Shown here: positions 19,563 through 59,341 of the stretch, piece after piece
Position numbering within the stretch: the first letter of the stretch is position 1
Layout of the letters: every line of letters begins with the position of its first letter
From: Candidatus Omnitrophota bacterium
GTDB lineage: Bacteria > Omnitrophota > Omnitrophia > Omnitrophales > Aquincolibacteriaceae
Direction of reading: 5' to 3'
DNA: 64,000 nucleotides
Assembly (NCBI GenBank): GCA_022711115.1
Contig: JAKLFP010000002.1
Location: 143,674 to 207,673 of the forward strand
Program-made: the position numbers and the translations under genes
The notes under the pieces: model-generated
Told to the model about the DNA's origin: nothing
Database searches by the model: none
The model's input: only the letters and a program-made list of their open reading frames with translations

Positions 19563-20941
19563 GATCTCTTCATATCCTTATAAAGACAGACTCGATTGCG
19601 CCCTTCCTCTTTGGCGCGATACATAGCTTCATCAGCCTGTTGGATCAGTTCTGAAGCAATAAGTTTTGTATCCGCTGTTTCCAAATCCGCGAACGAATCT
19701 CCCTCAAAAACCGCGATCCCTTGACTGACAGTCACTTTGGTTTTGTCATTATAGACTTGGAAATCATGGCGCGCGATATTCGAGCGAATACGTTCCGCAA
19801 CTTCTGCTGCATTGGCCACCCTCGTTTCCGGCATTGCAACGATAAACTCTTCTCCGCCATAGCGGCCTACGAGATCCACGCGCCTCAAATTTCGTTTCAG
19901 CAGATCGGCCACCTCTTTGAGCGTTGCATCACCTACAAGGTGTCCGAATTCGTCATTATATCTTTTGAAATGATCGATGTCTAACATTAATACGGTCAGC
20001 GGTAACTTAAACCGTAGACTGCGTTTAAGCTCCTCTTCCAACCGCTCCATAAAATGGTGGCGTACAAAAACCTGCGTCAGCTCGTCAATAATCGAAAGCT
20101 CCCGAACGGTCTCATACAATTTGATTTTTTTGATCAGAAGAACGAGATAAGCGCTCAAGACTTCAACCCTGGCAAGATCTTCCTCTTGAATCCCATGGAT
20201 TGAGAAAACCGCGATCATTTCATTTCCCTCTAAAATCGGAAAAGACCACCCATTGTCACGACGCAACATGGTCTTGGTGTTCTTCATCGCATTGAAGTCC
20301 GCCCGTTCCTGCGCTGCTAGCTCCCGTTCCTCTTCCTGAATACCTTCGGGCAGCATCTCATAGATTTTGACTCGAACCGCCTCGTCTTCCTGTCCAGGCT
20401 TCAAAATCAAAAAAATCCTCATCGTTTGAAATGCAAGTTCCGACTTTAATTTTTTCAGCAAAAATTCCGCAAGCGTTTCAAAATCCATACATTCGCTAAA
20501 ATCCCTAGCAATCTCAAACAGGTTCATGAGACTTCCAACTTGCGTCTCAAGATGACGCAAACTATTCAAACGCATCTGATACTTCCCTTGAAGTGATTCC
20601 AGATTTTTTCGTACATTCTCTTTTCTTTCGTCCGCAATCTTGAAAAAACGTCTCAGTTCCCAGAAGTACGTACAAAACGCAAAAAACAAAGCGCCCTGTA
20701 CCATCAAAAGCATGAACATGCGGGGTTGAGGATGCTGGAATAAAAACCAACCGTGTATCAAAACCATCCCTGCCAAGCAAAGGACAAATAGTAAGTAGAT
20801 TTTTTCTTTCAAAAAATAAAATAGCGGAAAAAGCCAGAGAGGCGAAAGAAGATAATAGACCAGCAAAAGCTCCCGTGCTTGAAAGAAAACGAAAACCGCC
20901 ATCCCCAAAAAGACGGCGAAAATCAGGAGATGCTTACGCAT
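19559..20941 (-). CDS. Membrane-anchored GGDEF diguanylate cyclase
   Basis: N-terminal TM helices plus a sensor region. The GGDEF domain has RYGGEEF and the upstream DxLTGL-type block (DELTQVFVRHHF). Overlaps the next GGDEF gene by 19 nt. Confidence 0.85.
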   Translation of the reverse strand: MRKHLLIFAVFLGMAVFVFFQARELLLVYYLLSPLWLFPLFYFLKEKIYLLFVLCLAGMVLIHGWFLFQHPQPRMFMLLMVQGALFFAFCTYFWELRRFFKIADERKENVRKNLESLQGKYQMRLNSLRHLETQVGSLMNLFEIARDFSECMDFETLAEFLLKKLKSELAFQTMRIFLILKPGQEDEAVRVKIYEMLPEGIQEEERELAAQERADFNAMKNTKTMLRRDNGWSFPILEGNEMIAVFSIHGIQEEDLARVEVLSAYLVLLIKKIKLYETVRELSIIDELTQVFVRHHFMERLEEELKRSLRFKLPLTVLMLDIDHFKRYNDEFGHLVGDATLKEVADLLKRNLRRVDLVGRYGGEEFIVAMPETRVANAAEVAERIRSNIARHDFQVYNDKTKVTVSQGIAVFEGDSFADLETADTKLIASELIQQADEAMYRAKEEGRNRVCLYKDMKRS

Positions 20942-22386
20942 ACGCGGTTCCTTCCTTCACGTTTTGCCCGGTACAGCGCTTGATCGGCTTTTTGAACCAA
21001 AACTTCGAGATCCATCGTGTCATCCGGCAGATTCGCCAATCCAACCGACACAGTCATATTGACCTGTTCCCTGCGGATAAAAAATGACGTCTTCTCAACA
21101 GCCTTGCGGACTTGTTCCGCAACCTTCAACGCCTCGGCTTTTTCCGTTTCAGGAAGAAGGACCGCGAATTCTTCGCCACCATACCGCGCCAAAATCACAT
21201 TCTTCAGATTCTTTTGAAGAATTTCGGAAAACTGCACAAGCATCAGGTCGCCGCCTTGGTGGCCAAAACGATCATTACATTCTTTAAAATGGTCGAGGTC
21301 ACACATAAGAAGCGACATGGTTTTTTTATTAAGAAGCGTACGGCGATGTTCTTCTTTGAGACGGTCAAAAAAATACCGGCGGACAAAAAGTCCTGTCAAT
21401 GCATCTTTAATCGCCAATTCTTCCGTCTTCTCATACAGCATGGCATTAGAAATCGCGGAAGAAGCTAGCGTGGCAATGGCATCAAGAAGACGCAGGTCGT
21501 CATGGCTAAAAACGTTCGGGCGCGTGGCATGAATGGCCAAAGTCCCCATCACACGACCTTCGTGAAAAAGCGGCGCCACAATAAGGCTTCTGATGTTTTC
21601 TTTTTTCTCCACATCGCCCAACACAAAACGAAAATCTTCCTGGCTATCCATCACAATAAGCCGCCGACGATTTTTGATGCACCAAAAATCAAAAATATCT
21701 CCCTGCTTGGCGCTCCAACTGCCTACAGGTCTCATCCGACGTCTTGCAACCACCGGCAATTTTCTCTCTTCAGCGTAGGCAAGCGTTACTTTTGAATAGT
21801 CACCTCGCGGAATGAAATCCATCGAACGATCCACGGTTTTTTGAGCGAGTTCTCCCCAGGAAAGACTTACCGTTAACTCTTCGGCCAGCTTCCTGAGATT
21901 GTAATAAGTGGAGTATTTTTCAAAAAAAGTGCTGATTCCTTCGCCCTTGGCCTTGAATGTGACCTCAAGATTATTCAATTCATCTTGATATTTTTCTTGC
22001 TCGATACCCACCATGGCAATATGGGTCTCAAAGTATTGCTCCACGCGATAAAGGATGACAAGAATCCCGCCATAGACAAGAAAAGACCAGAAAAAAACAG
22101 GAAATTTTGTAATTGAAACAATAAAAAGGACCATCGGGATAAGAAATCCCAGAATCAGGATATTCACCCCAATCCACTTAAACCGCCACCAGGTCGTAAA
22201 AACAGGCAGGGCAAAAGCCACTAGACAAAGCGCCATGCGGTGAAGGTATATCTCCGGAATCACAGAATCCCCAAGATGAGAGAGAGAGTAAACGATAAGA
22301 TAGGTGAGGAGAAAAATCAAACCGACGCCTACCGCAAAAGCAATCTGACGTCGGGTTCGGGAGCCCATAGTCCAGGTCATCTGCAC
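20923..22386 (-). CDS. Membrane-anchored GGDEF diguanylate cyclase with a GAF-like sensor. Track start GTG at 22386; ATG at 22380
   Basis: DALTGLFVRRYF...RYGGEEFAVLL...YRAKREGRNRV. N-terminal TM segments. Confidence 0.85.
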   Translation of the reverse strand: MQMTWTMGSRTRRQIAFAVGVGLIFLLTYLIVYSLSHLGDSVIPEIYLHRMALCLVAFALPVFTTWWRFKWIGVNILILGFLIPMVLFIVSITKFPVFFWSFLVYGGILVILYRVEQYFETHIAMVGIEQEKYQDELNNLEVTFKAKGEGISTFFEKYSTYYNLRKLAEELTVSLSWGELAQKTVDRSMDFIPRGDYSKVTLAYAEERKLPVVARRRMRPVGSWSAKQGDIFDFWCIKNRRRLIVMDSQEDFRFVLGDVEKKENIRSLIVAPLFHEGRVMGTLAIHATRPNVFSHDDLRLLDAIATLASSAISNAMLYEKTEELAIKDALTGLFVRRYFFDRLKEEHRRTLLNKKTMSLLMCDLDHFKECNDRFGHQGGDLMLVQFSEILQKNLKNVILARYGGEEFAVLLPETEKAEALKVAEQVRKAVEKTSFFIRREQVNMTVSVGLANLPDDTMDLEVLVQKADQALYRAKREGRNRVCVSIS

Positions 22387-45900: not shown

Positions 45901-46742
45901 CTAACCTACCCTGGCAAATCCGGGTATTGCCAGGGTTAGTCCACCAAGCAGCTTTTTATAATCTGAAGTTCTCTTTGCGTATCTTGATGCTCTGCCACAA
46001 ATTTCTCGTATGCCCTAGGGACTATTGAGAAGACATGGTCGAAATGGCATAAATCTTCGCCTTGGTTTTTCTGGATATATTCCCGATAAGATGAATACTC
46101 CCAGTCCGAAGGCGATGAAACTAGCCCTGCAGAACATGGATTTATATGAATGTAACGCGACAAATGCAACGCCTGAGCATCGTTGTTGACAAGAACATAT
46201 TGGAATCGCGATTCCCAAAGCGTACCTTTTCGGCGGATTTTGAGATTGAAATAGCGCGAGTAACTATGAAGTACAAGCCGCATAAAATCCGATATACCCC
46301 TTTGCGTAACCTGCGCCAAAAGCAAATGCAAATGAGTCGGCATAACGCAATAGGCAATAATTTCAATACGTTCATCACTTTGAGAATTTCTTTTATCATT
46401 TTTATCATCTAAAAGAGAAGGCCGTTGGGACTTGGAAAAAGAGGTCTTGGGATGGGCGCTTTTGTAAAACCGAAGCGTTTCAATCATCCTCAGGAATTCG
46501 TCAGGATAGCGAAATATTTCAAATCCCGCGATACTTCGAGCGAAGACGTGATAAAAACAACCCGTTACAAGCGGAACTTTCCGTTGGGGCATATTCGCGT
46601 TGTCAAAATACCTTTCTTGATTGTCAGTGGGGCTACCGACCCCTTGTCAAATCCTGGATTTGACAAAACTAAGAGTATCATAATATTGAATAAAAATCAA
46701 ATATAAATTGAAGAAAAAGCATGTCAAATCCCGGATTTGACA
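45901..46742. mobile_element. REPtron-like unit: the RAYT gene flanked by REP-like hairpins at 45901-45939 (cctggcaa...ttgccagg stem with an aatccgggta core), 46645-46665 (tgtcaaatcctggatttgaca) and 46722-46742 (tgtcaaatcccggatttgaca)
   Basis: Two perfect 21-nt palindromes differ by one base, and a third related hairpin overlaps the RAYT stop. The shared core is aaatcc(c/t)gg. Confidence 0.5.
45936..46592 (-). CDS. IS200/IS605-like HuH tyrosine (Y1) transposase of the REP-associated (RAYT) type
   Basis: HuH motif YCVMPTHLHLLL, catalytic-Tyr region LSRYIHINP. About 218 aa, with no second (TnpB) ORF. Flanked by REP-like palindromes. Confidence 0.8.
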   Translation of the reverse strand: MPQRKVPLVTGCFYHVFARSIAGFEIFRYPDEFLRMIETLRFYKSAHPKTSFSKSQRPSLLDDKNDKRNSQSDERIEIIAYCVMPTHLHLLLAQVTQRGISDFMRLVLHSYSRYFNLKIRRKGTLWESRFQYVLVNNDAQALHLSRYIHINPCSAGLVSSPSDWEYSSYREYIQKNQGEDLCHFDHVFSIVPRAYEKFVAEHQDTQRELQIIKSCLVD

Positions 46743-46832: not shown

Positions 46833-49800
46833 TTACGCGGCTTTCGACGTCGCCTGGATCGTCAGGATATCGGACCAGAGCTTCGCCAAACCCGCTAATT
46901 TCATCTCATCGATGCCAAAGTACGCCTTCACCCGCTTCAGAACATCATCGCCAAGCTGACGGTTCAAAAGCGCCATGGCATCCATATTCTTGATCGATAC
47001 GTTCAGTTGTGCCGCCTTCATGGCCAAGAGACCTCTCAGACCCGCGTAGGCCTTGTTCCCTTTTTGGCTGTCAAACACCGTTCCGCTGAATTCCTTGTCT
47101 AGCATCTCCGGCATATCTTCGATCAAAAGAACCAGATGCTCTCCTCGATCCATCTCGGCAGTCAAGGCAGGATCCATCTTCCGAAGGTCACGGAAAACCT
47201 CACCCTCCGCCGTGCGGATCGCTTGGGCCGCTTGAAGCGTATTCGCAAAATTAATCGTCATACGGTTATCGATCAGCGAGCCTCGATAATCCGTCGTCTG
47301 CTGGATATTATCCCTGATATCCGCTTGGATTGCCAACTGCTCCGCTACCGAAACCTTATCGTTAACAACCAAAATACGGACAACCGCTCTGGGGTTCATT
47401 CCCAGCTGAAGTTTCAACTCATTCAGCCTCGCGGCATCGGGCAGTTCTTTCATCACGATCAGCACACCGCCAATATCGGTCGAAACAGAAATCACGGCAT
47501 TCGTCATGATCGACTTAGCAACCTCGGATTCGAGGAACTTGGTCCAATCCATTTCTCCGGTCTTGAGTGCGACCAATGTCGTCAAGGCAGTCACAACTTG
47601 TTCCACAGTCGGATTGCCAAAGGCAGGCACTACGATTTTCGCGACCACATCATTCAGAGTATCTGTTCCATACTTAAAAGGTTCACTTTCCAATTTTCTC
47701 AGGATTTCCGGTGCTAGCAGCCTCCTGACCTGATCAACCAATTCCTGGCGGACTTCGATCTCCAACTTGATCACCGGCAATTGAGGCCCCGCCTCCCTCA
47801 CCTCGGAGCGGGTCAATCGCCCCTTCAGTGCTAATTTAACAGCTTCGATAGTTCCAGGTCGCTGGCTCCGATCAGTTTCAGCTTTTAGGATACTATCTTC
47901 AAGAGCATTCATGCTGTTCGCAAAAAAGTCATTCCTCGTTTCCAACACGGCCATATGATGCAAGCTAGGGTATGATCCAGTCCTGATGGCAAAAGCGTCC
48001 AACCAATGCATGACATCTTCCTCACGAGTTTGGATCGTGTCAGCCGCAGCTATCGTTATTTCCCATGCGCTGACCACGCGATCAATGGTCTGCATTATGT
48101 TCGCAGATAATTTCCCCCTCACCTCGGAGCGGGCAGGACTGCGATATACAGTTTCTCCGCGCAATGTAATTTGCGCCGGTAACATTAAACCATCCGTTGT
48201 TTCTATCCGTAATTTGGAAAATTTTCCGCCAATATCTCGAAAGGGCACATGCCTGGCTTCGTCAAGATCAGTGACGAGTATACGCATCATTTTCCCTACC
48301 GATTTTCCTTTAGCATCAAGGGCCGTGACAAACATAACACTCCCTGCATTTAAACCATTTTGACGGATCGGATTAAGATTCAGTCGAACAAGATCTTTGG
48401 CATTGATCGGCTGATCTAGCCGCAGGGTGTATTCTCTTGCCTGCGTTGTTTTTCCATCCACGTGTCCAGTTATGATTTGGGTACCTAAGCCTATCACATG
48501 GAATTGACTCATTCTTACTTCGGAACGAGGCCCTCCTAAAAATCCTTCTGCCCCTCCTCCTCCGATGTCCGGCGTAAAGTCATATCGGCCTTGTTTCACA
48601 TTGATGGTTGCCGATTCAGGGCCTGTTAACGTAAATGAAAAGGTTCTCGCTTCGTGCACATTGATCCCCTGAACATTATTGATGTCAATCGTGTAATTCT
48701 GAGGCGTGTTCAAAACTCCAGTCAAATTAGCACGCCAGGTCTTCCCTTCGGCATCTTGAATCTCATAGCCGACAACGGGAGCGTTTGTACTCCCTAAGGA
48801 AAAGGTGATCCCATTGGGAAACTGCGTCGGGAGATCCACATTATTGGTGTAATTTGCAAAAACACCCCCAAAACTCGCCGTATTTTCTCCCACATAATTG
48901 AATGTGAATGTGTTCGTCTCCGTAACCTTGAGCTCCCCAACCACATTCGTACTGCTCACAAAATTACCCAACCCAACAAATGGCAATGGCGTGACGCTGG
49001 CAGTTTGATTCCCAGGCGGAACATCGGGAGCAAAATTCCAAGAACCCATGACTAGATCAGCGTTCTTAGGACCTTGCCCTTCAAAAACATAGACCATCTG
49101 ACGGACCTGCGTCGGATCAATCTTACGAGCCATTTGGTCCAAAGGCAGCGTGTATTTTTGCGAGCTGGGAGTAATACCGCTTAAAATGCCTGTCCAAGTA
49201 TTCGTATTGGCATCTTTAACCTCGACCTTCAAATGATCCAGATTGGGACTCGCAATCGAAAAGGTTAATCCGTTCGGATAAAGACTTTGAAAGTTAATAT
49301 TATTGGTATATTCAAACACCGTTCCCGCATAACCGGTAGCATTCGTGCTCGAGTAACTCATGCTCATGGTGTTTGTCCCGGTAATATTATTGAAAACCAC
49401 TTCACCTCCTGGCCCTGTGAAATTCATCGGATTAACTTGCGGCAGCGGTGTAATGGCAGCACCCTGATTGCCAGGAGGAATCGAGGGAACATAATCCCAA
49501 GATCCTAAAACAAGATCCGCGCTCTTGGGACCTTGCCCTTCAAAAACATAGACCACCTGCCTCACCTGAGTCGGATCAATCTTTTGTTGAAGGAGGTTGA
49601 GCGACAGCGTGTATTTTTGTAAACCCGGAGTGATGCCGCCAAGCATCCCTCTCCAAGTGTTGGTATTCGCATCTTTGACCTCCACTTTCAAGTGATTCAG
49701 ATTGGGGCTTGCGATCGAAAACGTCAGACCATTCGGATAAAGACTTTGAAAGTTAATGTTATTGGTATATTCAAACACAGTGCCCGCATATCCCGTAAAA

Positions 49801-52800
49801 TTCGTACTCGTATAACTCGCAGTCAGCGTATTGGTGCCCGTGATATCATTGAAAACCGATTCACCAGTCGGACCTGTAAAGGTCGTCGGATTCACTTGCG
49901 GCAGCGGCGTGATGGCAGTACTTTGATTTCCGGGCGGAATGATAGGAACGTAATCATAAGGACCAAGCTCAATCACATAGGTCTTCTGCCCTTCTCCTGC
50001 GGCGGTGAACACAATCTCCCGGATCTTGGTCGTATCGATCCCGTATATCTGATTCAAATTCACCGTGTATTTCTGAGGCGTCTCGGTAATGTCGCTAACA
50101 TTGCCACGCCAAGATCTTCCGTTCTCATCCTTGATCTCGAGAACCAACGAAGTGGCATCCAAACTGCCTACCGAAAAGGTAAGTCCATTCGGGAATTGAC
50201 TCGCAAAATCCACGTTATTGGTGAAACTTGAAAAAACACCCCCGAAGCTCGCGACATTGATACCGCTGTAACTCAAACGAAGAGCATTGGTCCTGATCAC
50301 CGTAACATCGGCAACCGTGTTCGTGCTGTCGGTGTAACTTCCCGTATTATTATTGACAGGCAACGGCGTGATCAAAGCACCCTGATTGGCTGCGGGCAAA
50401 ATCGGAGGAACATAGCTGTAGGGTCCAAGTTCGATCACATAGGTCTTCTGCCCTTCCCCTACCGCAGTGAAAACGATCTCTCGGATCTTAGTCGTATCGA
50501 TCCCGAATATTTGATTCAAGTTGACCGTATGCTTTTGAGCAGTCGCGCTAATACCGCTGATATTCCCACGCCAAACGTTCCCGTTCTCATCCTTGATCTC
50601 AATGCCCAAAATCGTCGCATTCGTGCTGGAAACTGAAAAGGTAAGACCATTGGGAAATGCGCTTGCAAAATCGACGCTATTAGTAAAACTTGAGTAAACC
50701 CCTCCATAACTATCCGCACTCGGTCCCGCATAATTCAGCATCACAACATTGGTGTTTTGCGCTGTGGCCAGAACCGATGCGTTCGTGCTATTAAAAGTAC
50801 CGAAGTTATTAAACGGCAAAGGGGTGATGTTGGCCGCTTGATTCCCAGGCGGAATATCGGGAATAAAATTCCAAGAGCCCATGACAAGATCGGCACTCTT
50901 CGGGCCTTGCCCTTCAAAAACATAGACCATCTGACGGACCTGCGTCGGATCAATCTTCCGAGCTATTTGGTCCAAAGGCAGCGTGTACTTTTGCTGATCC
51001 GGCGTGATGCTGCTAAGCATGCCAGTCCAGGTGTTGGTATTGGCATCCTTAACCTCGACTTTTAAATGATCCAGATTGGGACTGGCAATCGAAAAGGTCA
51101 GACCATTCGGGTAGAGATTCTGAAAGTTGATATTATTCGTGTATTCAAACACTGTCCCCGCATAACCGGTGGCATTCGTGCTCGCATAACTCATGCTCAG
51201 GGTATTGGTCCCAGTCACATTATTGGTAACTACCTCGCCTGTTGGTCCTGTAAAAGTGGTGGGATTGACCGTTGGAAGCGGTGTAATGTCCGCGGTTTGA
51301 TTGCCGGGAGGAATCGACGGAATATAGTTAAAATTTCCCCAATCCACATAGAGCGTTTTCTGTCCCTGACCTTCGATCACAAGCGTGATTTCCGTGATAT
51401 GCGTCTGATCAAGCGCTGGAGCATATTGCGTCATAAAACTGAGCGGAATATTAAAGCCTTTTCCTGAAGGCGTCAGATTGGATAGATATGCCGCAAAAAC
51501 ATTACCTCTCCCGTCCTTGAACTCAATCTTCACCCTTGAAAGATTGGGACTCGCTGCGAAGAGTCTCAAACCAGTCGGATAATTGGTCACCAAATTGATG
51601 GGGTTGTCTGCAAAATTGAATGCGGGACCCGCATAACTGGCAGTTCTGGCGCCGTTGACATTCACGGTCAAAAAGTTTTGCTCGTTTACCGTGTTCGTGA
51701 TCGTCGTACCGTCGTTGGAGTCAAAACTCCATAAATTCTGAACGGTCGGAAGCGGAGTCGCGGCTTTCTTCACGGCGCGGTAAACCTGCATGGGATTCAG
51801 CGAGAAATTTTGAATGAAATCAAGCGGCTGACCGGGTAAAACGAATTGATTGGTAACCAAAGTTCTCCACGGGCCGTTCACCTGCGCTGCGGCTTGAAGA
51901 TCAATGGCTCCAGGGCTGTAAGGCGCTTCCACGCGTACAGTTCCATTTTCACTAATAGACATCTGAGGCGGCATGAGCCCAGCCTCTGCGGCGTTTGTCA
52001 TTGTCACAGGCGCTTGGGATATTCCTACCACACTCATCAAACCAAACATAAGGGTCCGCAAAAGCGACGGCCTCATACTTCTGACAAACTGCTCTTGCGG
52101 CTGCGCCATCTCTTGACCCCTCATCTCCGAACGCATGCGGCTCCGAATAGCTTCATCAAGCGCGCGCAATGCGGGCTCATCTATTAGACCAAATTCAACT
52201 AATTTTTCCTCCACTTGCCTGCTTGCGTTCGCCAGTGCGAGGGCATTCCGCACGGCCCTCGTCGGATCAATTTTGAAAGCTACAACATCCGCCACTGTTT
52301 CGAGAGCCCAATCCGACTCGTCTCCCTGCACCCATTGCAAAAATTTCTCGATACCCGCATCAACCGCCCCCCTCACTTCGGATCGGGAGGCAACAGCGGT
52401 TTTGACCGCATCGACAAGTTGAACACCTGAAAAGGGCTTTGACAAAAATCCAACACTGGATTGTGCTACTGCTTTTCCTTCCACTGCGCTCAACCCTTCT
52501 GTCCCACCGCTCATCACAAGTGCCGCAATCGAATTGTTTTTAGCCCGGGCAGCTTCGACAATAACACTTTTTATAACCCCATCGCTTTTTTGAAAGGTAT
52601 CCTGACCATGCAGGATCCTGTCCGTGACCAGTACGTCAAAATCGTTTTCACTGATGGCTTGACGAGCGCCGTCAACCGTATCTGCGAATATCACGATCGC
52701 CCCTTCGCTCTCAAGTATTGCTTTTACTACTTCAAGAATCATGGGCTCATCATCAACAGCAAGAATCCGTTTTCCCGCAAGATTGATATCCGTAGGCAGA

Positions 52801-55800
52801 ACCGCCCTCACCTCGGAGCGGGTGGATTCGTCATATCCCTCAAGACGGATGTGGAGAGGCGATTGCCATTGCATCGTGGGGGTACTTGAACCAGTCCAGG
52901 AATTATATTGGGAAATTTTGTTGATATGCCCCTTGGGGTCTATCTCAAGCAGATAAAGCTGGTCCCCTAGCCGCTGGGGCGCTGTGTCCCTGAAACGTGC
53001 CAATTTAACAGAGAACTTTCCGCCTTCCCAGGAAATCCGACCTACGATCAGCATACCGCGCCAACCGAAATGCAATATACCGCCAAGCGGCTTGGACAGA
53101 ACCAAATCCTGACCCCAAAGACCTCGTAATAGCGTAAACCATGGCCTTGTAATCATCCTGAAACCGAAATCGACCCCACGAGAAATCGGCGCTAACAGAC
53201 GAAAGCCAGAAACACTTGTTAATGAACGAAGCAATTTGTTATCAGCCTCTGGATCTCTTCCATTCCCTACAAGCATCGGCGATAGCGGACGTCCTGTGGC
53301 ATCGAGATTGTCTGTCGCTTTCAAAAAGGCTCTCTGCAGACGCTGATAAATTTCATAACTTGGCATGGCACGTCCATAAGCCAACCACACCAGAAAAGTC
53401 AAAAAGATAAAATCATGCCGCTTGAGATAAATGACCTGGTTGTTCGCGGTAACCAAAAATGCCCGGCTTGATTCGCTCAAACGTCCGGCAATGCTCTGAA
53501 TCGTCTGTCTGGGAACGACGCTTTCATCATTCGCAAGCGCGTCTTTTTCCAGTTGTTGGATAAACGGCCTCCAATTTTCCTGATCCGTTGCCAGCATTTC
53601 GATTGCCGTGTCGATATTAGACCTCACCTCGGAACGGGCGGATTCGTCGCGTTTCATTCGTTCTTGTCTGGCTATGAACCACTTCCCAAAATAGTAGAGG
53701 CTGGTGCCCGCTAAAATTGCCGCCGGAACCACCATAGCCCCACGAATGATCCTGCCGAGTGAAGCAAAATTTATGACCGCACGATCCGATAGTGAAGCCT
53801 TGCCTTGCGGAGGTCTGACATTCACAACATCACGAATGAATGCCGTTGCGGCAGGATATCCGGGCTTACTGAACGGAAAAGTCGTCAGCCCTTTTAATAC
53901 AAAATCAATTTGGCCGCGTGTATTTCTTTGATGCTCATCCCATGCCATCACAAGGATCATGGCCCGCATGACTGTGAATTCCGATTCGGGGTGCACGGTC
54001 ACGCGGGTTGCGCCGCCGGTCCGTACCAGCCGCGTCCCACTGATCATTCCAATCCGTGTCGGAATGCCCCCGGCTCCGACCACTTCGGCTCTTTCCAAAT
54101 CGCTTTGATTGATAATAAAATCCCGGGAAATGAGACTTCCGAAGATTCGCGCATTCCAGAGACTGATGAGCCACAAGGCCCTCTGGTCCATCTCCGAAAA
54201 ATTTCTCACGGCCGGGTATTTAGCCAGAAATTCCGATTTTTTCTGAGCCCAGAGATTGTTGATATGCCCATTGACTGTCTGGACACGTTCTACCGGTGTC
54301 TTTTCCTCAAAATAGGTCCAGGCATGAAAGCGCTGATACTTTCGAGCGTCATCGATCCACTGATTCACTGACGGATAGGCCTTCCCAAGCCGGTATTCCT
54401 GAAATTGAGGAAAACCTTGCGCCTTGAGCGCGGCAGCACCTGCCGACTGCACAGGTCCTTGTGTTCTGGGAGCCTCCCCTGCTTCCACGGTTAAAGCACT
54501 TGCCAAAAGACCCAAACTGGCGGCAAAAAAAGTACGTCGCGTCACGGGCTGAAGTATTTCACGTTCTGACACTCTCAGTTCGGATCGCAAATTTTCTCTC
54601 GTCTCTCGAGCGCTTTCAATCAACGTCCCAAGTCTTTGGAACTCACTCGGCATGTTCAACGAAACGCCTGGCTGGGCCCGCAATCTTTCCGCAGCGGTTA
54701 TCATGGCTGCTAATTGCCCGTCTGCCTCTGCATCAACTGTTCCGCTTTGGACACGATCCTGTAATGCCCAAAATTGGCGTTCCAATTTTTTCACATCATC
54801 CGGCGTCGCCCTCAATTCGGCACGGGCCGCCCCAGAAGAAGAAAAGCCTAAACGACGTTCAAAGAAAGCGCGAGCTGCCCCTGCATAGTCGCGAAACTCC
54901 GGTCTACCGCTTGCCGGTTGATACGGAATTTCGGAAACTCGAAGTTCGTTTCGTCTTGTCGAATCCGCATGGGCAACCACAAGACTTGCGCCCAAGGCCA
55001 TCGCATCATATAAATGCGTCACATGAAACGCCTGCATTTCCTGACCCGGCTTAAAAAGCTGAGGAAAACTGACGACGAGACCGGAAACTGCCTGACCCTT
55101 TTGATCAACCGCCCTTGATTCCGCACGGAGTTCGATCGCTTTTATTCTGCCTGTTGCTTTCAGTTTATCGATCAGTGTGTTAATATCGGCAATGTCAAGC
55201 GTCCGCAGTTCCGAGCGGCCGGTAGATGTTCCTATGAAAGGGCGAAAACCGTTAACCCTCTCCCCAAGCGCCCAGCGAAACTGTTTGACAATGAACGCCG
55301 GAACCGCCGCTTGATACAGATGGATCATGTTTAACATTTCACCAAGAAAATATCGCAGTCTCTTGCCCCGTAATTCCGAGCGGCCGGTCGTTGCGCCAGT
55401 CTTTTCAATCTTCATTTCTCTCAGAGAACTGTCATTAGCATCATTCACAACTATCGTTTCACGCCCACTCCTGATAAACATTTCTTGAACATTAGCGGGC
55501 AAATCCTGCATCGTCAGACTAGATGCCGGTAAGTCCATCTTGGTTACTGGCGCGTTCGGCGTCGTGCCCCCCGCAACATTCACAGCCATCTTTGTGCCAG
55601 CCGTCGTATTCGTAGAGCTGAGCCGTGCAAGCGCCGGAGAATTCGTCGAAAAGATGAAAACACCACCATCTCCTTTATTTAAATAATATCCGGACCGAGC
55701 CTCCCAATTCATCAGATTATGTGTCTCTTCCGTTCTTACACCATTTATGGCAACCTCAAACGTTGTCGCCATCCGTCCATTCGGTAGTTGGAACAAATTC

Positions 55801-57983
55801 GGTGACATCGTGCCTGCATTCCCTTGCGCTCGCGCCACGTTGAGTGACAACGCCAAACCCATCAACGCTAACCCTATCTTCTGCCACCAATTCGATCGCA
55901 GCTCAGAACGACCTGCTAATGCCGGAGCCGGAGTTTTAGCCGCTGTCTCGACGAGCGCCAATGATGGTACTGCAATGGATGTTGCTCTGGAAGCCGGCGC
56001 AGTCGCATTCACAATCGTCGCTTTTTCTCCCATGACCGCAGATTGACTTGTTGCGGTCGCGGTACGAATCATGGCGGTCGTGCCTTGCTGAACGGCTATA
56101 TCCCATGTCTTGGTACTATCATTAAATACAAGCGTTCGAGTTCCCGTTTTACCATCTACCACGTACGTCATCGACCCTCCGCGCGTGGTCATGATCGGTA
56201 CTGCGCCTTTATCCGCCATATATCGGAAATTCTGATCCATAGTTGCGGTCGTTGTGATATCAGCCGCTGCGTCCAAGGCCGCGCTGACCACGAGTCGAAG
56301 CGTTTTAGAGCCGTCCTTGCCCATCGGATCTCCAGTCATCGTGACAGCATTTTCAATGGTCGCAATGTCAAAACGGGTCTTGGTGCGCTGTAACATGGTA
56401 TCGCGGTAAAGCTTCTCATCACTTTTTTCGCTGAGACGCGGCGTGACGATCCCGTAGCTGATGTCATGATCGCGGAAGATCTCGCTCAAACCGTCCGTGT
56501 GATAACCCCCGGTAATCAGAACCGCTTTGCCGATATTTTCTTCTGAAAGTTTTTTTTGGATTTGCACAAAAAAGGCATCTTCACGTTTCCTCGCGAGATC
56601 ATAGAAATCAATGCCGCTTGTGAAAAGTTCGGACATGCGTTTGGAAAAATCGGGCGGCATGACTTTCTGTTTCATAAGCGATTCGTCATTTTTGGAGACG
56701 GCCACCGCCTCCGTCAAACGCCCGACCATGGACTCGATGGTGAGGATCTTTTGTTTGTCCTGCACTTTGCGCGATTCCGTGCGGTTGAGTTCCAGGTGCA
56801 GCAGTTTGCGGAGGAGTTCGCCATCCCGATAAAGTTCGAGAAGATTCTTCTGCGCGGGCTCCTTGGCCAAGGTATCAAGCATTTTAGCGAAAAGGAATTC
56901 GATCTCTTCAAAAAGAGCTTTCGGATCCAGTTCATTTTTGAGGACCACATAACCGGCATAAAGACTGAAATTCGGATAATCGCTGAACTTGAATCCTCTG
57001 GGTCCGGCTTCCGCCGCCAGTTGTTCCAGAACCCATCGGGGCAATATTTCTTTCGCATCCTTACCCGTACCGGCCCTGCCCATACTGATATTGCCTTCCT
57101 GAAAATTTTCGATGGCCCGGACAAGTGCCTCCGAAGTTCTTTTTTCGCGAAGAAACTTCACGAGGGAATCCCGTTCGGCCAGCGCCTTGTTCCGCTCCAC
57201 GTCTTTTTCCATTGTCTGAATAACAAGAAGACGCGTGATTTGCGGCCAACCGACCTGGGCGAACAGGCTTTCCAGGTCCACGTTCAGAACCTTCTTCGCT
57301 TGTTTGACAAGCGATTTTACATAGGGCAAAAATTCGCGCCGCCCCATCTCAAAGCTTTTCCAATCCGCGATAAGCCCGCGTGTATCCGGTGTAAACGTTT
57401 TGGACGCAACTTGCTCCAGCCTCACGTCGAAAACTCGAAAGAATTTTTCCACATCCGTTTCGGCCCCAAAGACTTTCTTCAAGGCGTTGTAATTTTGTTT
57501 ATAGAGGGAAGCATTTTCGATACCGATCGCCTCCACTTCCGGCGGTGCCTCCAGCAAATAAAGTTCGGCACCCGTCAATTCGCCCTGTTTTGCCAGATTA
57601 TCGGAAAGCTTCAGATTGCGTTCCTTGTCCGGGAAAAGACGGAGATAATCCGCATTCAGTTTTTCAGAAGCGCCTTCCACGAACACGGTTTTGATCGCGT
57701 ATTTTTTGTTCAGGTATTCCAGGAGCTGCTTGATCTTGATTTGCGCCTGATAATTGGCGTGGGCATTCTGAATGTGAAGCACAAATTTCGGATCTTGTTT
57801 GACTGGCGCCTCATAAATTTCATCGATGCTTGCAAGGTCCGCAGGAATATCAAGGCTCAGAAAATTAGGGATTTCCCGAGGGTTGGCTATTTCGATGCGA
57901 GCGCCCGGATCTGCCCATGTGCACTGCGTGGTCAAAAAACAAACTACTGTTATTATCGCGACCACTTTTAAATACTTTTTCAT
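46833..57983 (-). CDS. Giant modular protein (3716 aa) of unknown function. It has an N-terminal signal peptide and an embedded CheY-like receiver domain. About 7 tandem 150-aa beta-sandwich repeats are present. At least 13 RSE[LV]R junction motifs occur, and internal Sec/Tat-like hydrophobic segments follow some of them
   Basis: An uninterrupted 11.15-kb frame. ATG at 57983 is preceded by a GGGGG Shine-Dalgarno. The signal peptide is MKKYLKVVAIITVVCFLTTQCTWA. The receiver domain is RILAVDDEPMILEVVKAIL...VLVTDRILHG...LSKPF. See findings for the repeats and motif. Confidence 0.8.
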   Translation of the reverse strand: MKKYLKVVAIITVVCFLTTQCTWADPGARIEIANPREIPNFLSLDIPADLASIDEIYEAPVKQDPKFVLHIQNAHANYQAQIKIKQLLEYLNKKYAIKTVFVEGASEKLNADYLRLFPDKERNLKLSDNLAKQGELTGAELYLLEAPPEVEAIGIENASLYKQNYNALKKVFGAETDVEKFFRVFDVRLEQVASKTFTPDTRGLIADWKSFEMGRREFLPYVKSLVKQAKKVLNVDLESLFAQVGWPQITRLLVIQTMEKDVERNKALAERDSLVKFLREKRTSEALVRAIENFQEGNISMGRAGTGKDAKEILPRWVLEQLAAEAGPRGFKFSDYPNFSLYAGYVVLKNELDPKALFEEIEFLFAKMLDTLAKEPAQKNLLELYRDGELLRKLLHLELNRTESRKVQDKQKILTIESMVGRLTEAVAVSKNDESLMKQKVMPPDFSKRMSELFTSGIDFYDLARKREDAFFVQIQKKLSEENIGKAVLITGGYHTDGLSEIFRDHDISYGIVTPRLSEKSDEKLYRDTMLQRTKTRFDIATIENAVTMTGDPMGKDGSKTLRLVVSAALDAAADITTTATMDQNFRYMADKGAVPIMTTRGGSMTYVVDGKTGTRTLVFNDSTKTWDIAVQQGTTAMIRTATATSQSAVMGEKATIVNATAPASRATSIAVPSLALVETAAKTPAPALAGRSELRSNWWQKIGLALMGLALSLNVARAQGNAGTMSPNLFQLPNGRMATTFEVAINGVRTEETHNLMNWEARSGYYLNKGDGGVFIFSTNSPALARLSSTNTTAGTKMAVNVAGGTTPNAPVTKMDLPASSLTMQDLPANVQEMFIRSGRETIVVNDANDSSLREMKIEKTGATTGRSELRGKRLRYFLGEMLNMIHLYQAAVPAFIVKQFRWALGERVNGFRPFIGTSTGRSELRTLDIADINTLIDKLKATGRIKAIELRAESRAVDQKGQAVSGLVVSFPQLFKPGQEMQAFHVTHLYDAMALGASLVVAHADSTRRNELRVSEIPYQPASGRPEFRDYAGAARAFFERRLGFSSSGAARAELRATPDDVKKLERQFWALQDRVQSGTVDAEADGQLAAMITAAERLRAQPGVSLNMPSEFQRLGTLIESARETRENLRSELRVSEREILQPVTRRTFFAASLGLLASALTVEAGEAPRTQGPVQSAGAAALKAQGFPQFQEYRLGKAYPSVNQWIDDARKYQRFHAWTYFEEKTPVERVQTVNGHINNLWAQKKSEFLAKYPAVRNFSEMDQRALWLISLWNARIFGSLISRDFIINQSDLERAEVVGAGGIPTRIGMISGTRLVRTGGATRVTVHPESEFTVMRAMILVMAWDEHQRNTRGQIDFVLKGLTTFPFSKPGYPAATAFIRDVVNVRPPQGKASLSDRAVINFASLGRIIRGAMVVPAAILAGTSLYYFGKWFIARQERMKRDESARSEVRSNIDTAIEMLATDQENWRPFIQQLEKDALANDESVVPRQTIQSIAGRLSESSRAFLVTANNQVIYLKRHDFIFLTFLVWLAYGRAMPSYEIYQRLQRAFLKATDNLDATGRPLSPMLVGNGRDPEADNKLLRSLTSVSGFRLLAPISRGVDFGFRMITRPWFTLLRGLWGQDLVLSKPLGGILHFGWRGMLIVGRISWEGGKFSVKLARFRDTAPQRLGDQLYLLEIDPKGHINKISQYNSWTGSSTPTMQWQSPLHIRLEGYDESTRSEVRAVLPTDINLAGKRILAVDDEPMILEVVKAILESEGAIVIFADTVDGARQAISENDFDVLVTDRILHGQDTFQKSDGVIKSVIVEAARAKNNSIAALVMSGGTEGLSAVEGKAVAQSSVGFLSKPFSGVQLVDAVKTAVASRSEVRGAVDAGIEKFLQWVQGDESDWALETVADVVAFKIDPTRAVRNALALANASRQVEEKLVEFGLIDEPALRALDEAIRSRMRSEMRGQEMAQPQEQFVRSMRPSLLRTLMFGLMSVVGISQAPVTMTNAAEAGLMPPQMSISENGTVRVEAPYSPGAIDLQAAAQVNGPWRTLVTNQFVLPGQPLDFIQNFSLNPMQVYRAVKKAATPLPTVQNLWSFDSNDGTTITNTVNEQNFLTVNVNGARTASYAGPAFNFADNPINLVTNYPTGLRLFAASPNLSRVKIEFKDGRGNVFAAYLSNLTPSGKGFNIPLSFMTQYAPALDQTHITEITLVIEGQGQKTLYVDWGNFNYIPSIPPGNQTADITPLPTVNPTTFTGPTGEVVTNNVTGTNTLSMSYASTNATGYAGTVFEYTNNINFQNLYPNGLTFSIASPNLDHLKVEVKDANTNTWTGMLSSITPDQQKYTLPLDQIARKIDPTQVRQMVYVFEGQGPKSADLVMGSWNFIPDIPPGNQAANITPLPFNNFGTFNSTNASVLATAQNTNVVMLNYAGPSADSYGGVYSSFTNSVDFASAFPNGLTFSVSSTNATILGIEIKDENGNVWRGNISGISATAQKHTVNLNQIFGIDTTKIREIVFTAVGEGQKTYVIELGPYSYVPPILPAANQGALITPLPVNNNTGSYTDSTNTVADVTVIRTNALRLSYSGINVASFGGVFSSFTNNVDFASQFPNGLTFSVGSLDATSLVLEIKDENGRSWRGNVSDITETPQKYTVNLNQIYGIDTTKIREIVFTAAGEGQKTYVIELGPYDYVPIIPPGNQSTAITPLPQVNPTTFTGPTGESVFNDITGTNTLTASYTSTNFTGYAGTVFEYTNNINFQSLYPNGLTFSIASPNLNHLKVEVKDANTNTWRGMLGGITPGLQKYTLSLNLLQQKIDPTQVRQVVYVFEGQGPKSADLVLGSWDYVPSIPPGNQGAAITPLPQVNPMNFTGPGGEVVFNNITGTNTMSMSYSSTNATGYAGTVFEYTNNINFQSLYPNGLTFSIASPNLDHLKVEVKDANTNTWTGILSGITPSSQKYTLPLDQMARKIDPTQVRQMVYVFEGQGPKNADLVMGSWNFAPDVPPGNQTASVTPLPFVGLGNFVSSTNVVGELKVTETNTFTFNYVGENTASFGGVFANYTNNVDLPTQFPNGITFSLGSTNAPVVGYEIQDAEGKTWRANLTGVLNTPQNYTIDINNVQGINVHEARTFSFTLTGPESATINVKQGRYDFTPDIGGGGAEGFLGGPRSEVRMSQFHVIGLGTQIITGHVDGKTTQAREYTLRLDQPINAKDLVRLNLNPIRQNGLNAGSVMFVTALDAKGKSVGKMMRILVTDLDEARHVPFRDIGGKFSKLRIETTDGLMLPAQITLRGETVYRSPARSEVRGKLSANIMQTIDRVVSAWEITIAAADTIQTREEDVMHWLDAFAIRTGSYPSLHHMAVLETRNDFFANSMNALEDSILKAETDRSQRPGTIEAVKLALKGRLTRSEVREAGPQLPVIKLEIEVRQELVDQVRRLLAPEILRKLESEPFKYGTDTLNDVVAKIVVPAFGNPTVEQVVTALTTLVALKTGEMDWTKFLESEVAKSIMTNAVISVSTDIGGVLIVMKELPDAARLNELKLQLGMNPRAVVRILVVNDKVSVAEQLAIQADIRDNIQQTTDYRGSLIDNRMTINFANTLQAAQAIRTAEGEVFRDLRKMDPALTAEMDRGEHLVLLIEDMPEMLDKEFSGTVFDSQKGNKAYAGLRGLLAMKAAQLNVSIKNMDAMALLNRQLGDDVLKRVKAYFGIDEMKLAGLAKLWSDILTIQATSKAA
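48540..51950. repeat. About 7 tandem coding repeats of about 456 bp (152 aa) inside the giant gene, in two alternating sequence subtypes
   Basis: Units begin ...IPPGNQ.A.ITPLP and end ...(F/Y)(I/V)P. Subtype 1 carries TFTGPTGE...KVEVKDANTNTW; subtype 2 carries IKDENG..WRGN. Several units are at least 85-90% identical at protein level. The antisense frames repeat as well (MIQIGACDRKRQTIRIK... at 49692 and MIQIGTGNRKGQTIRVE... at 51066). Confidence 0.8.
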
Positions 57984-58178: not shown

Positions 58179-58910
58179 TCAAGTTTTTTCAACAAAACGG
58201 ACAGCCAGACCTAATTGTTCCTTTCGAACTTCCTTGCGGCATATCTCCCCTGAAATTTGATATTCTTCCGGAAAGTTTGCGCTCGGAAATATATGGATCT
58301 CAACCTTAAGGCCCTCGATAGGATTCAACGCATCAATCCTATGAGAAACCCCAAGGTCAAGATATTCCCCGAAAAGCCCCCCCTCACTGATATTTGTCGC
58401 AATGGCGGTGGTTTGGATCATTTCTCCGCTTGCGGTAAATATCTTTAATTCCAGCGGAACCGCAACGTGCATGCGGTGGCTCCGCCGCTGTTCTAGCTGA
58501 TAGCCAAGCGACTCCTGGGGGGTTTTAACACCCTTGGCCATAATCTTCTTGTCGGGATCCTTAACGAAAAGAAAGGGCCCAAAAGATTCGGCCACCTGCT
58601 TCTCATCCGAGCAGATATCCACTTTCCCCGAGGGAAAGTTATCCTCGATACAGTGGGCCATTTCTGGCGTCACCCCGTAAAGCACGCTATGCTTGGGACG
58701 GATGCAAACCGTCAAAAGACGTCGCATCCCTATCGCATCCAGAGGACCCGACTCTTGGAAGTTTAGGATAATCTGCTGCAAGCCGTAGCGCCGGATGTTT
58801 TTCTGAATCTTCCAGGCTACCTCCTGCACCGATTCAAAGGTCGGCATGCCCTTGAGATCAAAAACCGAAACCCCGCCGATTTCTCGCGTTGAATAATGGA
58901 ATTTAGTCAT
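58179..58910 (-). CDS. STAS (anti-sigma-antagonist-like) - PilZ fusion protein; putative c-di-GMP receptor. ATG at 58910; the track start at 58997 is GTG
   Basis: N-terminal STAS-like fold (MTKFHYSTREIGGVSVFDLKG...). C-terminal PilZ motifs QRRSHRMHV (RxxxR) and NISEGGL (D/NxSxGG). Confidence 0.6.
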   Translation of the reverse strand: MTKFHYSTREIGGVSVFDLKGMPTFESVQEVAWKIQKNIRRYGLQQIILNFQESGPLDAIGMRRLLTVCIRPKHSVLYGVTPEMAHCIEDNFPSGKVDICSDEKQVAESFGPFLFVKDPDKKIMAKGVKTPQESLGYQLEQRRSHRMHVAVPLELKIFTASGEMIQTTAIATNISEGGLFGEYLDLGVSHRIDALNPIEGLKVEIHIFPSANFPEEYQISGEICRKEVRKEQLGLAVRFVEKT

Positions 58911-59341
58911 AACGCATCTTCCTCTTTTTGAACCGTTCGACCCTCCAAAGAATTCGGTGGATTCTGGGATAGATGTACCCTGAAAGAATATCTCCACGCT
59001 GGATGACGTAGGCCAATTGAGGACCCCCTTTCCCGTTCATTTTCATACTGCGAAAATCTTGAAGATCATGTGTCATTTTCATCACTCCTCTTTTTCAAAT
59101 TGTCCATAATATCATTTAACAACTTTTACTATGTTCTAACAAAAACATAACTCAGTAAAATACTTTTGTCAATATGTTATATATATAAAATATTTAATTA
59201 TATATTTTATTAATATTTATAAATATATATATCAAAAACAAGCAAATACATAACAAAAATGAGCCAAATTGACTCACTCTAAAAAACTTAAATCACTACC
59301 TTGGAAAGTCCTTGCCGGAGGCAAGAAGATTTTTAGAAGAT

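Follow-up and report, generated by a model that had tools for sequence, protein, structure and literature searches.

How does a CheY-like receiver (REC) domain, a module of the cytoplasm, come to lie deep inside a protein that begins with a secretion signal? The question is raised by a 64,000-nt stretch of a Candidatus Omnitrophota genome (contig JAKLFP010000002.1, positions 143,674 to 207,673; hereafter the window, to which positions refer unless a locus is named). A preliminary description of the window had noted such a domain between two RSEVR pentapeptides and had considered a membrane topology with cytoplasmic loops, release of the module, or a non-canonical use of the fold. The host protein is encoded by a single open reading frame (ORF) on the minus strand, 46833..57983 (stop codon included), as are all parts of it named below. 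Its 3,716 residues comprise a signal peptide, a conserved N-domain, about 14 cassettes delimited by the motif R-S-E-x-R (RSExR) and a conserved C-domain. We propose, at a probability of roughly 45%, that this chain is a polyprotein that would be split at RSExR and would thereby release the receiver as a cytoplasmic CheY-like protein.

The receiver itself is real. It is encoded at 52386..52805 (residues 1727-1866, 140 residues) on the minus strand; the plus-strand translation of 52388-52805 is riddled with stops, and the minus-strand translation of the same interval, AVLPTDINLAGKRILAVDDEPMILEVV...LSKPFSGVQLVDAVKTAVA, is exactly the peptide quoted in the preliminary description. Pfam PF00072 (Response_reg), the only Pfam model that matches the ORF above threshold, covers residues 1740-1861 with its full length (model positions 1-111 of 111) at 34.5 bits (gathering cut-off 30.2; E = 2.4e-8), and 29 NCBIfam response-regulator models match the same stretch (E <= 1). 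Alignment with E. coli CheY and B. subtilis Spo0F places all five signature positions: D12/D13 correspond to D1744/D1745 (52749-52754), D57 to D1788 (52620-52622), T87 to S1825 (52509-52511) and K109 to K1849 (52437-52439). The acidic pocket, the phospho-acceptor Asp and the conserved Lys claimed for the domain are all intact in this alignment, with no degenerate residue among them. The domain has its oddities, namely about nine additional residues after β3 and DRILHG instead of the usual D-x-x-M-P-x-M-D-G, and it scores only 4 bits over the Pfam cut-off. Judged by its sequence, the receiver is bona fide and looks functional. No histidine kinase (HisKA, HATPase_c) was detected among the 20 window ORFs scanned.

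An exhaustive HMMER search with the receiver cassette returned 2,702 relatives at E <= 1e-3 among 1.84 billion representative proteins. The top match, P0055 (1,998 residues), is itself a member of the family to which the window's protein belongs; it consists of a leader, the N-domain, five tandem REC cassettes (residues 692-1434), a 277-residue cassette and the C-domain. Its receivers are bounded by six RSE[IV]R motifs at intervals of 147-154 residues, and inspection by eye shows the DD, D, S/T and K-P-F signatures in all five. The other 149 of the best 150 matches look like ordinary REC-containing proteins of 121-1,451 residues with 25-42% identity, and the RSExR motif is absent from them; relatives outside the family, among these best 150 of 2,702, are at most 42% and mostly 26-38% identical. 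Elsewhere in the family, REC cassettes occur at loci L023 (57 bits), L038 (43 bits) and L014 (three copies). When seven family cassettes, the window's and six others, were aligned with CheY, the signature residues were kept with a single substitution, D12 to E in L038. These cassettes and the five of P0055 make a non-canonical use of a degenerate fold an unfavoured account.

The RSEVR copies on either side of the receiver are confirmed at 52806..52820 (residues 1722-1726, the 5' bracket) and 52371..52385 (residues 1867-1871, the 3' bracket), and the interval first reported is precisely the segment between them. They belong to a series: the ORF holds 11 copies of R-S-E-[LVM]-R and four degenerate copies, and R[STNPA]E[LVMFI]R is found 14 times in its frame against 3 times in all other frames of the window. 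We extended the count to 79 related loci (L001-L079, 1.16 Mb) with 82 ORFs of at least 1,000 residues, all on the strand of the family gene. R[SA]E[LVM]R occurs 177 times in these long ORFs against 2.0 expected from shuffling, an enrichment of about 90-fold, and 21 times in the 2,541 shorter ORFs against 6.2 expected. An unbiased k-mer count also singles out RSEMR, RSEVR and RSEAR. Both ends of the motif are Arg rather than Lys (208 vs 3) and its acidic residue is Glu rather than Asp (208 vs 3); Ser greatly outnumbers Ala at the second position, the x position is taken by V, M, A, L, T, S or I, and small residues flank the motif on both sides. RAExR is a genuine family variant, observed 31 times where residue frequencies give an estimate of about 1.6. 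RSE.R totals 287 in 183,000 residues, with up to 12 motif borders per ORF and a median spacing of 281 residues between motifs. In predicted models, the predicted local distance difference test score (pLDDT) falls below 50 around the motif at residue 692 and over the opening 16 residues of the modelled C-domain, which starts with RSEVR; the motif presumably sits in disordered linkers. Its strictness would suit a recognition site. The searched literature yielded neither the RSExR motif nor any link of it to Omnitrophota, the matches being irrelevant (e.g. varSelRF, alginate lyase peptides).

The same motif marks the places at which family genes have been taken apart and rejoined. BLAST alignments between family proteins start within 10 residues of a motif in 36% of cases, compared with 7.7% for random positions, and many start at its first Arg. 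Related proteins differ by entire motif-bounded modules: a 624-residue module of L026 corresponds to a 25-residue spacer in L055, L021 has an additional 275-residue module relative to L024, and the modules common to L021 and L066 differ in order. One ORF of L005 contains a duplicated cassette (RSETR, 209 residues, RSELR) at L005:5362-6018 and L005:7645-8301, 2.3 kb apart. The two copies are identical at 651 of 657 nt, the identity runs from 2 nt before one motif to 1 nt after the next, and the flanks are unrelated; the cassette was copied recently, and the breakpoints coincide with the motifs. Different genomes share about 80% identity in MgsA at the conserved locus MgsA-PilZ-X-LPG synthase, where X, the family gene, encodes 2,228 to 3,716 residues with unrelated middles. 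On these sequence comparisons, cassette gains, losses and duplication break exactly at the motif.

Cassettes often begin as independent proteins do. Hydrophobic stretches lie in the 60 residues after a motif in 19.6% of cases, vs 7.8% at random and 6.5% ahead of one. Strongly hydrophobic segments start 0-20 residues after a motif in 27 of 168 instances against 3.6% expected (4.4-fold), and only 1 of the 168 ends 0-20 residues before one. Some of these leaders carry recognizable export signals, as in ...RSELR-KIIP-VVIAAALTASAVLA-QE and in RSEVR-...SRRDFVTTTFVAAGFVALTGC, which combines a twin-arginine with a lipobox (L-T-G-C); lipoboxes after motifs (2 observed vs 0.28 expected) are too few to use. 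The preponderance of leaders after motifs (27 vs 1), some of them of the twin-arginine (Tat) or lipobox type, is the geometry of N-termini and not of internal helices.

The window's ORF follows this pattern. It starts with the secretion signal that the preliminary description had assigned to it: residues 1-24 (57912..57983), MKKYLKVVAIITVVCFLTTQCTWA/DP, have the n-, h- and c-regions of a Sec-type signal peptide by inspection and a Kyte-Doolittle peak at residues 5-23, and the leaders of homologues share its pattern of a hydrophobic run followed by W-[AG]-x-P. Three cassettes, beginning at residues 697, 1138 and 1956, then start with leader-like segments of their own (regions 697-720, 1138-1170 and 1956-1992). 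Directly after the RSELR at 55896..55910 (residues 692-696) comes RSELR-SNWWQK-IGLALMGLALSLNV-ARA/QG, with the hydrophobic segment at 55824..55883 (residues 701-720) and an A-x-A site by inspection. The RSELR at 54573..54587 (residues 1133-1137) is followed after 11 residues by a Tat/Sec-like leader, ...VTRRTFFAASLGLLASALTVEA (54480..54539, residues 1149-1168), in which inspection finds the twin-arginine T-R-R-x-F-F (TRRTFF). Eighteen residues after the RSEMR at 52119..52133 (residues 1951-1955) lies ...FVRSMRPS-LLRTLMFGLMSVVGI-SQA/PV (52008..52064, residues 1974-1992). The cassette of residues 1138-1454 also contains the only stop-transfer-type hydrophobic segment of the protein (53685..53768, residues 1406-1433), then KWFIARQERMKRDESA, then RSEVR (53622..53636, residues 1450-1454). 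Leader, terminal hydrophobic helix, basic tail and next motif are together arranged as in a type I membrane protein.

Several further cassettes hold domains of cytoplasmic type. L022 (L022:5574-17453), whose ORF starts with a leader and the family N-domain, has a PfkB carbohydrate kinase cassette at residues 807-1088. A sub-threshold match to an S-adenosylmethionine (SAM)-dependent methyltransferase lies between RSExR motifs in L076 (L076:13404-18263, residues 970-1077), P0017 is annotated as a methyltransferase, and HEAT repeats are among the family cassettes.

Conserved domains frame this variable middle. The N-domain of the window's protein (56304..57911, residues 25 to about 560) combines an α/β core with a sizeable insert of helices; 54 homologues match the first ~560 residues at 37-62% identity and three more do so weakly, at 24-30%. 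Homologues with a named source are almost all from Candidatus Omnitrophota, and a genome scan found at least 561 relatives, with several paralogues per genome and with every listed locus that bears an organism title assigned to Omnitrophota; the family is restricted to this phylum. Family members of about 1,000 residues are essentially N-domain, linker and C-domain, and the long members have their extra material between the two domains. Invariant residues of the N-domain include H75, E103-G104 and G492-G493-H495; at the sequence level, H75, E103 and H495, invariant in 36 sequences, are a candidate catalytic His...Glu...His set. The spacing of 28 from H to E agrees with that of Ere esterases. 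The N-domain is putatively Tiki/TraB/erythromycin-esterase (Ere)/ChaN-like; Pfam, NCBIfam and a profile search against PDB gave no identity for it, and Foldseek against PDB gave nothing significant.

The C-domain (46836..47795, residues 3397-3716) is a Rossmann-like α/β domain that ends in ...SKAA, and RSEVR (47796..47810, residues 3392-3396) stands directly ahead of it, as the motif does elsewhere in the family. The L010 and L035 proteins end in sequence that is 42-45% identical to this domain. Searches for its identity gave generic Rossmann-like matches only, with no autotransporter barrel or known sorting domain. In almost all family proteins (P0001-P0049; in the window 46836-46850, ...TSKAA) a conserved amphipathic helix is followed by a terminal ...SA or ...AA, and such a nonpolar C-terminal dipeptide recalls the C-terminal degrons or recognition tags of ClpXP or tail-specific proteases.

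The motif is biased in its codons as well as in its residues. The first Arg is CGY in 86% of motifs against a background of 40%, Ser is TCC in 56% against 20%, and the last Arg is AGG or CGG in 57% against 38%; 67% of the x codons end in G, and the base before the motif is C in 53%. This bias is present in three divergence groups, including sequences with N-domains at most 40% identical to the query, and the strict nucleotide pattern occurs solely in frame 0 of long ORFs (74 of 74). Combined with the breakpoints in L005, the codon bias suggests a function of the motif's DNA or RNA apart from the peptide it encodes, which could lie in cassette recombination or in a translational event. Several candidate roles were considered and not adopted. 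Internal translation starts do not fit, as Met is no more frequent than background after the motif and 56% of the x codons are not start codons. RNA hairpins or DNA palindromes are marginally above synonymous controls (3.72 vs 3.21 pairs; minimum free energy -6.3 vs -5.0 kcal/mol) at a slightly higher GC content. As a sole explanation, a DNA repeat or mobile element is at odds with unconserved flanks, varying codons, a pattern that is exclusively in frame and the lack of tandem DNA repeats.

We propose the following model. A fixed frame, with the Sec leader and the Tiki/TraB/Ere-like N-domain at the start and an α/β domain of about 310-320 residues at the end, encloses a fast-changing string of protein-sized cassettes (median about 280 residues), each placed after an RSExR in a disordered linker. 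The chain would be separated at the motifs, most simply by endoproteolysis after the second Arg, the likeliest position because the P1' residues are small. Each cassette would become a separate polypeptide; those with Sec, Tat or lipoprotein leaders would be exported or anchored in the membrane, and leaderless ones would remain in the cytoplasm. The 140-residue receiver (residues 1727-1866) would be freed as a single-domain CheY-like response regulator and phosphorylated on D1788 by a kinase encoded elsewhere. The 15-18 nucleotides of the motif seem in addition to act as in-frame break and join points for the duplication, gain and loss of cassettes, which would explain the mosaicism. Extended to the phylum, the proposal is that such Omnitrophota genes are operons in one reading frame, that is, polyproteins of complete proteins with different destinations, split at R-S-E-x-R, with the coding sequence of the motif serving also as the in-frame joint for capture, duplication and loss; this wider claim is more tentative than the one for the window's protein and may well prove too broad.

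Several points weigh against cleavage at RSExR. We infer the cut indirectly, from the strictness of the motif, its disordered setting and the autonomy of the cassettes; its position within the motif, its agent (enzyme or ribosome) and the action of the receiver in the producer's cytoplasm are likewise proposals. The N-domain, the sole conserved hydrolase-like candidate, lies behind the signal peptide and would be on the wrong side of the membrane for cytoplasmic junctions. If the chain stayed uncut, the Sec signal at its head would be apt to draw the later cassettes through the translocon, so cleavage would need to be fast or co-translational. A pure protease site leaves the synonymous-codon bias unexplained, and this bias points to an additional or alternative role in nucleic acid or translation. 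The 82 long ORFs are related to one another and their motif counts are not fully independent; 84% of the hydrophobic segments are not near any motif, and the transmembrane and signal-peptide calls are crude hydropathy scans plus inspection. Finally, the window's protein, P0055 and L014 could have their receivers in the cytoplasm by plain membrane topology.

This last point leads to the most serious alternative, a single uncut multi-pass membrane protein with the receiver on a cytoplasmic loop and RSExR as a linker or DNA shuffling junction, one of the possibilities that the preliminary description had raised. The uncharged hydrophobic segment of 19-28 residues within 1406-1433, followed by KWFIARQERMKRDE, lies ahead of the REC region, and the leader-like segment 1974-1992, preceded by Arg residues, lies after it; residues 1434-1973 would then be cytoplasmic. 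The first would be a stop-transfer helix and the second a re-insertion signal-anchor, with the N-domain and the repeat cassette in the periplasm. The charges around both segments obey the positive-inside rule, and the segments 701-720, 1149-1168, 1406-1433 and 1974-1992 alternate such that the receiver is inside after three passes following the leader. P0055 and L014 each have one candidate uncharged helix of 19-24 residues just ahead of the first motif, and codon bias and breakpoints at the motif fit a DNA-level role. A 2026 preprint reads long Omnitrophota proteins, including those with PF00072, as membrane-anchored chains with a signal peptide plus transmembrane segments or transmembrane segments only (10.64898/2026.06.07.730766). 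However, the positive charges before 701-720 (RSELRSNWWQK) are on the wrong side for the orientation that the alternation needs, since they would be periplasmic, and the A-x-A c-region of this segment is like that of a cleavable leader; the three C-terminal cassettes, among them the Rossmann-like C-domain, would all be outside. The topology is possible for the window's protein but does not generalize: in L023, L016 and L022 no uncharged stretch of at least 17 residues, hence no candidate transmembrane segment, separates the REC or PfkB cassette from the exported N-domain. With hydropathy as crude as here, this objection is suggestive, not decisive. The direction of the leaders (27 after vs 1 before motifs) suits N-termini and not internal helices, and the R-not-K, E-not-D strictness is hard to reconcile with a passive linker. 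We consider an uncut chain unlikely on balance, though a contender to be taken seriously, and favour release of the module, given that the RSEVR bracket is the cassette delimiter of the whole family; cleavage itself is the conjectural step.

Two other accounts are less likely. One is a MARTX-like secreted effector polyprotein, cut outside the producer or in prey by the N-domain hydrolase or a host factor; the conserved ends would serve export or delivery, the receiver, kinase and methyltransferase would act in prey, and cassettes with leaders would use the Sec and Tat systems of the prey. The N-terminal Sec leader conserved across the family would agree with export, the conserved ends around a hypervariable orphan middle resemble mosaic toxins, and Omnitrophota have been proposed to be predators or parasites whose giant proteins attack prey (10.1101/2023.11.21.568195). 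Yet no RTX repeats, no cysteine protease domain (Pfam and NCBIfam scans) and no type I secretion neighbours were found, nor any immunity-like partner gene; the genes occupy two conserved housekeeping positions rather than islands, occur as several paralogues per genome, and in one case carry five tandem intact receivers, an odd cargo for a toxin. This account is improbable. We rate as slightly more improbable a separation in translation or at the RNA or DNA level, in which CGY-TCC-GAR-NNG-MGG would programme a ribosomal release like that of 2A 'StopGo' or RNA processing, or would be purely a site-specific recombination site that does nothing at the protein level. It would make sense of a synonymous bias that is strong in all three divergence groups and that favours G-ending codons even at the variable x, of the restriction of the pattern to frame 0, and of the extra 2 nt before and 1 nt after the motifs in the L005 identity. 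It is opposed by the lack of Met enrichment downstream, which makes internal initiation unlikely, by the marginal hairpin and palindrome potential, and by the lack of a recombinase common to the synteny groups, an IS200-like Y1 transposase being found at only 4 loci; we also know of no bacterial precedent for StopGo. Least probable by far, and already largely refuted, is an artefact of mis-assembly or gene fusion, or a decayed pseudo-receiver kept as a structural spacer. The middle cassettes without detectable homologues and the narrow Pfam margin of the receiver would be in line with it, but the ORF runs for 11 kb without a stop codon, and an identical 3,716-residue product is encoded on four contigs of 79 to 340 kb, which come from two or more JGI metagenomes (3300010429 and 3300025706 among them), and is therefore no assembly artefact. 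Moreover, dozens of relatives share the architecture, and the signature residues are kept in the REC cassettes that were aligned or inspected.

The remaining parts of the ORF are as follows. Residues 561-691 (55911..56303), between the N-domain and the first motif, form a variable linker or β region that has a pLDDT below 50 over residues 630-696 and does not align between homologues. Further RSELR copies lie at 55368..55382 (residues 868-872) and 55203..55217 (residues 923-927), and the four degenerate motifs RAESR 953, RNELR 1011, RPEFR 1027 and RAELR 1054 at 54810..55127 (residues 953-1058). The region of residues 868-1137 (54573-55382) is thus crowded with motifs and variants, with implied segments of 16, 25, 27, 50, 53 and 74 residues, which may be decaying junctions or small released peptides. 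Word-indexed searches with the middle cassettes (residues 1138-1955 and 1951-2500) gave nothing at E <= 1e-3, and a phmmer comparison of every window cassette with the 82 long family ORFs matched only the N- and C-domains, plus one weak match; by these searches the middle cassettes, the receiver included, lack close relatives and are orphans. The largest, of 1,197 residues (48528..52118, residues 1956-3152), comprises its own leader and several repeats of about 150 residues, read by eye, with YPNGLTFS...QKYT...EGQG...PPGNQ. It matches no Pfam model, the databases searched gave no homologue, and its DNA shows no tandem repeat; it is probably a surface or adhesin-like array of β-domains. RSEVR copies at 48513..48527 (residues 3153-3157) and 48117..48131 (residues 3285-3289) follow it.

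The ORF is set among housekeeping genes. Its neighbours include PheRS α and β, MgsA and, directly upstream, a PilZ protein, as well as an IS200-like Y1 transposase, a DUF1844 gene and, downstream, LPG synthase. The directly adjoining upstream gene (58179-58997, minus strand) encodes a 272-residue protein with a C-terminal PilZ (c-di-GMP-binding) domain and keeps this position in about 18 related loci at 53-73% identity; two GGDEF cyclase genes lie at 19559-22386. The gene of the IS200-like Y1 (HUH) transposase (45936-46592, minus strand) is 240 bp downstream of the giant ORF, and only three further loci, L002, L012 and L027, have a homologue of it beside the family gene; a link with cassette mobility is not supported. 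Paralogues occupy a second type of locus (L020-L058; e.g. L053:5799-7922, L027:4867-6378), with GcvT/P-LplA-UvrD upstream and an acyltransferase downstream, and in only 6 loci of this type with an M48 peptidase about 2.8 kb downstream. With two conserved housekeeping positions, the family occupies core-genome positions and not islands. Neighbour clustering found no protease, kinase, recombinase or secretion gene common to both synteny groups.

Single features of the RSExR family have counterparts in known systems. The receiver cassette resembles CheY and Spo0F in its 140-residue length and in short N- and C-terminal overhangs like those of a stand-alone CheY-like protein; unlike them it is no separate gene, and unlike hybrid-kinase receivers it is fused to neither a kinase nor an output domain. 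Polyubiquitin, viral polyproteins and the gingipain polyproteins (RgpA/Kgp/HagA) yield several mature proteins from one ORF through a repeated short site, and gingipains cut after Arg or Lys. The five tandem receivers of P0055 recall polyubiquitin. In contrast to these systems, the cassettes of the family are mutually unrelated and apparently differ in destination (cytoplasm, membrane, periplasm), and their cleavage is a proposal. To our knowledge, no bacterial polyprotein with cassettes bound for different compartments is on record.

MARTX toxins likewise have conserved ends and recombining central effector modules, freed by cleavage at short inter-domain sites, and share with the window's protein a chain of several thousand residues with a mosaic middle. 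They differ in their RTX repeats, in an inositol-hexakisphosphate-activated cysteine protease that cuts after Leu and in type I secretion without a Sec leader, none of which is seen in the ORF or its neighbours. The VENN motif of CdiA, PxxxxDPxGL of Rhs proteins and the cassettes of cyanobactin precursors show how a short conserved peptide and its coding DNA between constant and swappable parts can be both processing site and recombination anchor. CdiA and Rhs proteins have one border each and cyanobactins have very short cores, whereas the RSExR family has up to 12 borders and protein-sized cassettes; no toxin/immunity pair or enzyme gene for ribosomally synthesized and post-translationally modified peptides lies near a family gene.

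Closest in phylogeny are the giant proteins of Omnitrophota, which come from the same phylum and likewise join signal peptides, transmembrane segments and cytoplasm-type enzyme domains within ORFs of great length. The published giants have at least 10,000 residues and fall into classes (Archaeovorin or dockerin type) with dockerin/TSP3, SecA-like, C39 or S8 peptidase domains; the window's ORF has 3,716 residues and none of these. CheY-like receivers are on record in long proteins of the phylum, with PF00072 in 105 of them (10.1101/2023.11.21.568195; 10.64898/2026.06.07.730766), so a receiver in a long Omnitrophota protein with a signal peptide is not new. The authors of the first study suspected that the giants are processed and were unable to split them, having 'no information about cleavage points' (West-Roberts et al., 2023; bioRxiv 10.1101/2023.11.21.568195). 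A motif for cleavage or delimitation is reported in neither study, and in one of them internal signal-peptide calls are regarded as artefacts (10.1101/2023.11.21.568195; 10.64898/2026.06.07.730766). The frame of Tiki/TraB-like N-domain, R-S-E-x-R cassettes and C-domain is undescribed in both papers and elsewhere in the searched literature; the RSExR delimiter rule and the family frame thus appear to be new. RSExR, a strict pentapeptide with a codon signature at each border compared, is a concrete candidate cleavage point for the mosaic proteins of this phylum. If it is cleaved, the family would represent a bacterial polyprotein strategy for co-expressing differently compartmented proteins from a single ORF, and the paradox of ATP-, SAM- and phosphoryl-dependent domains behind a secretion signal would be resolved. 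If it is not, the motif would still be an in-frame joint for cassette exchange that drives very fast domain turnover at conserved loci. Should the same signal punctuate the 10,000- to 150,000-residue proteins of the phylum, it would supply the missing key to parsing them.

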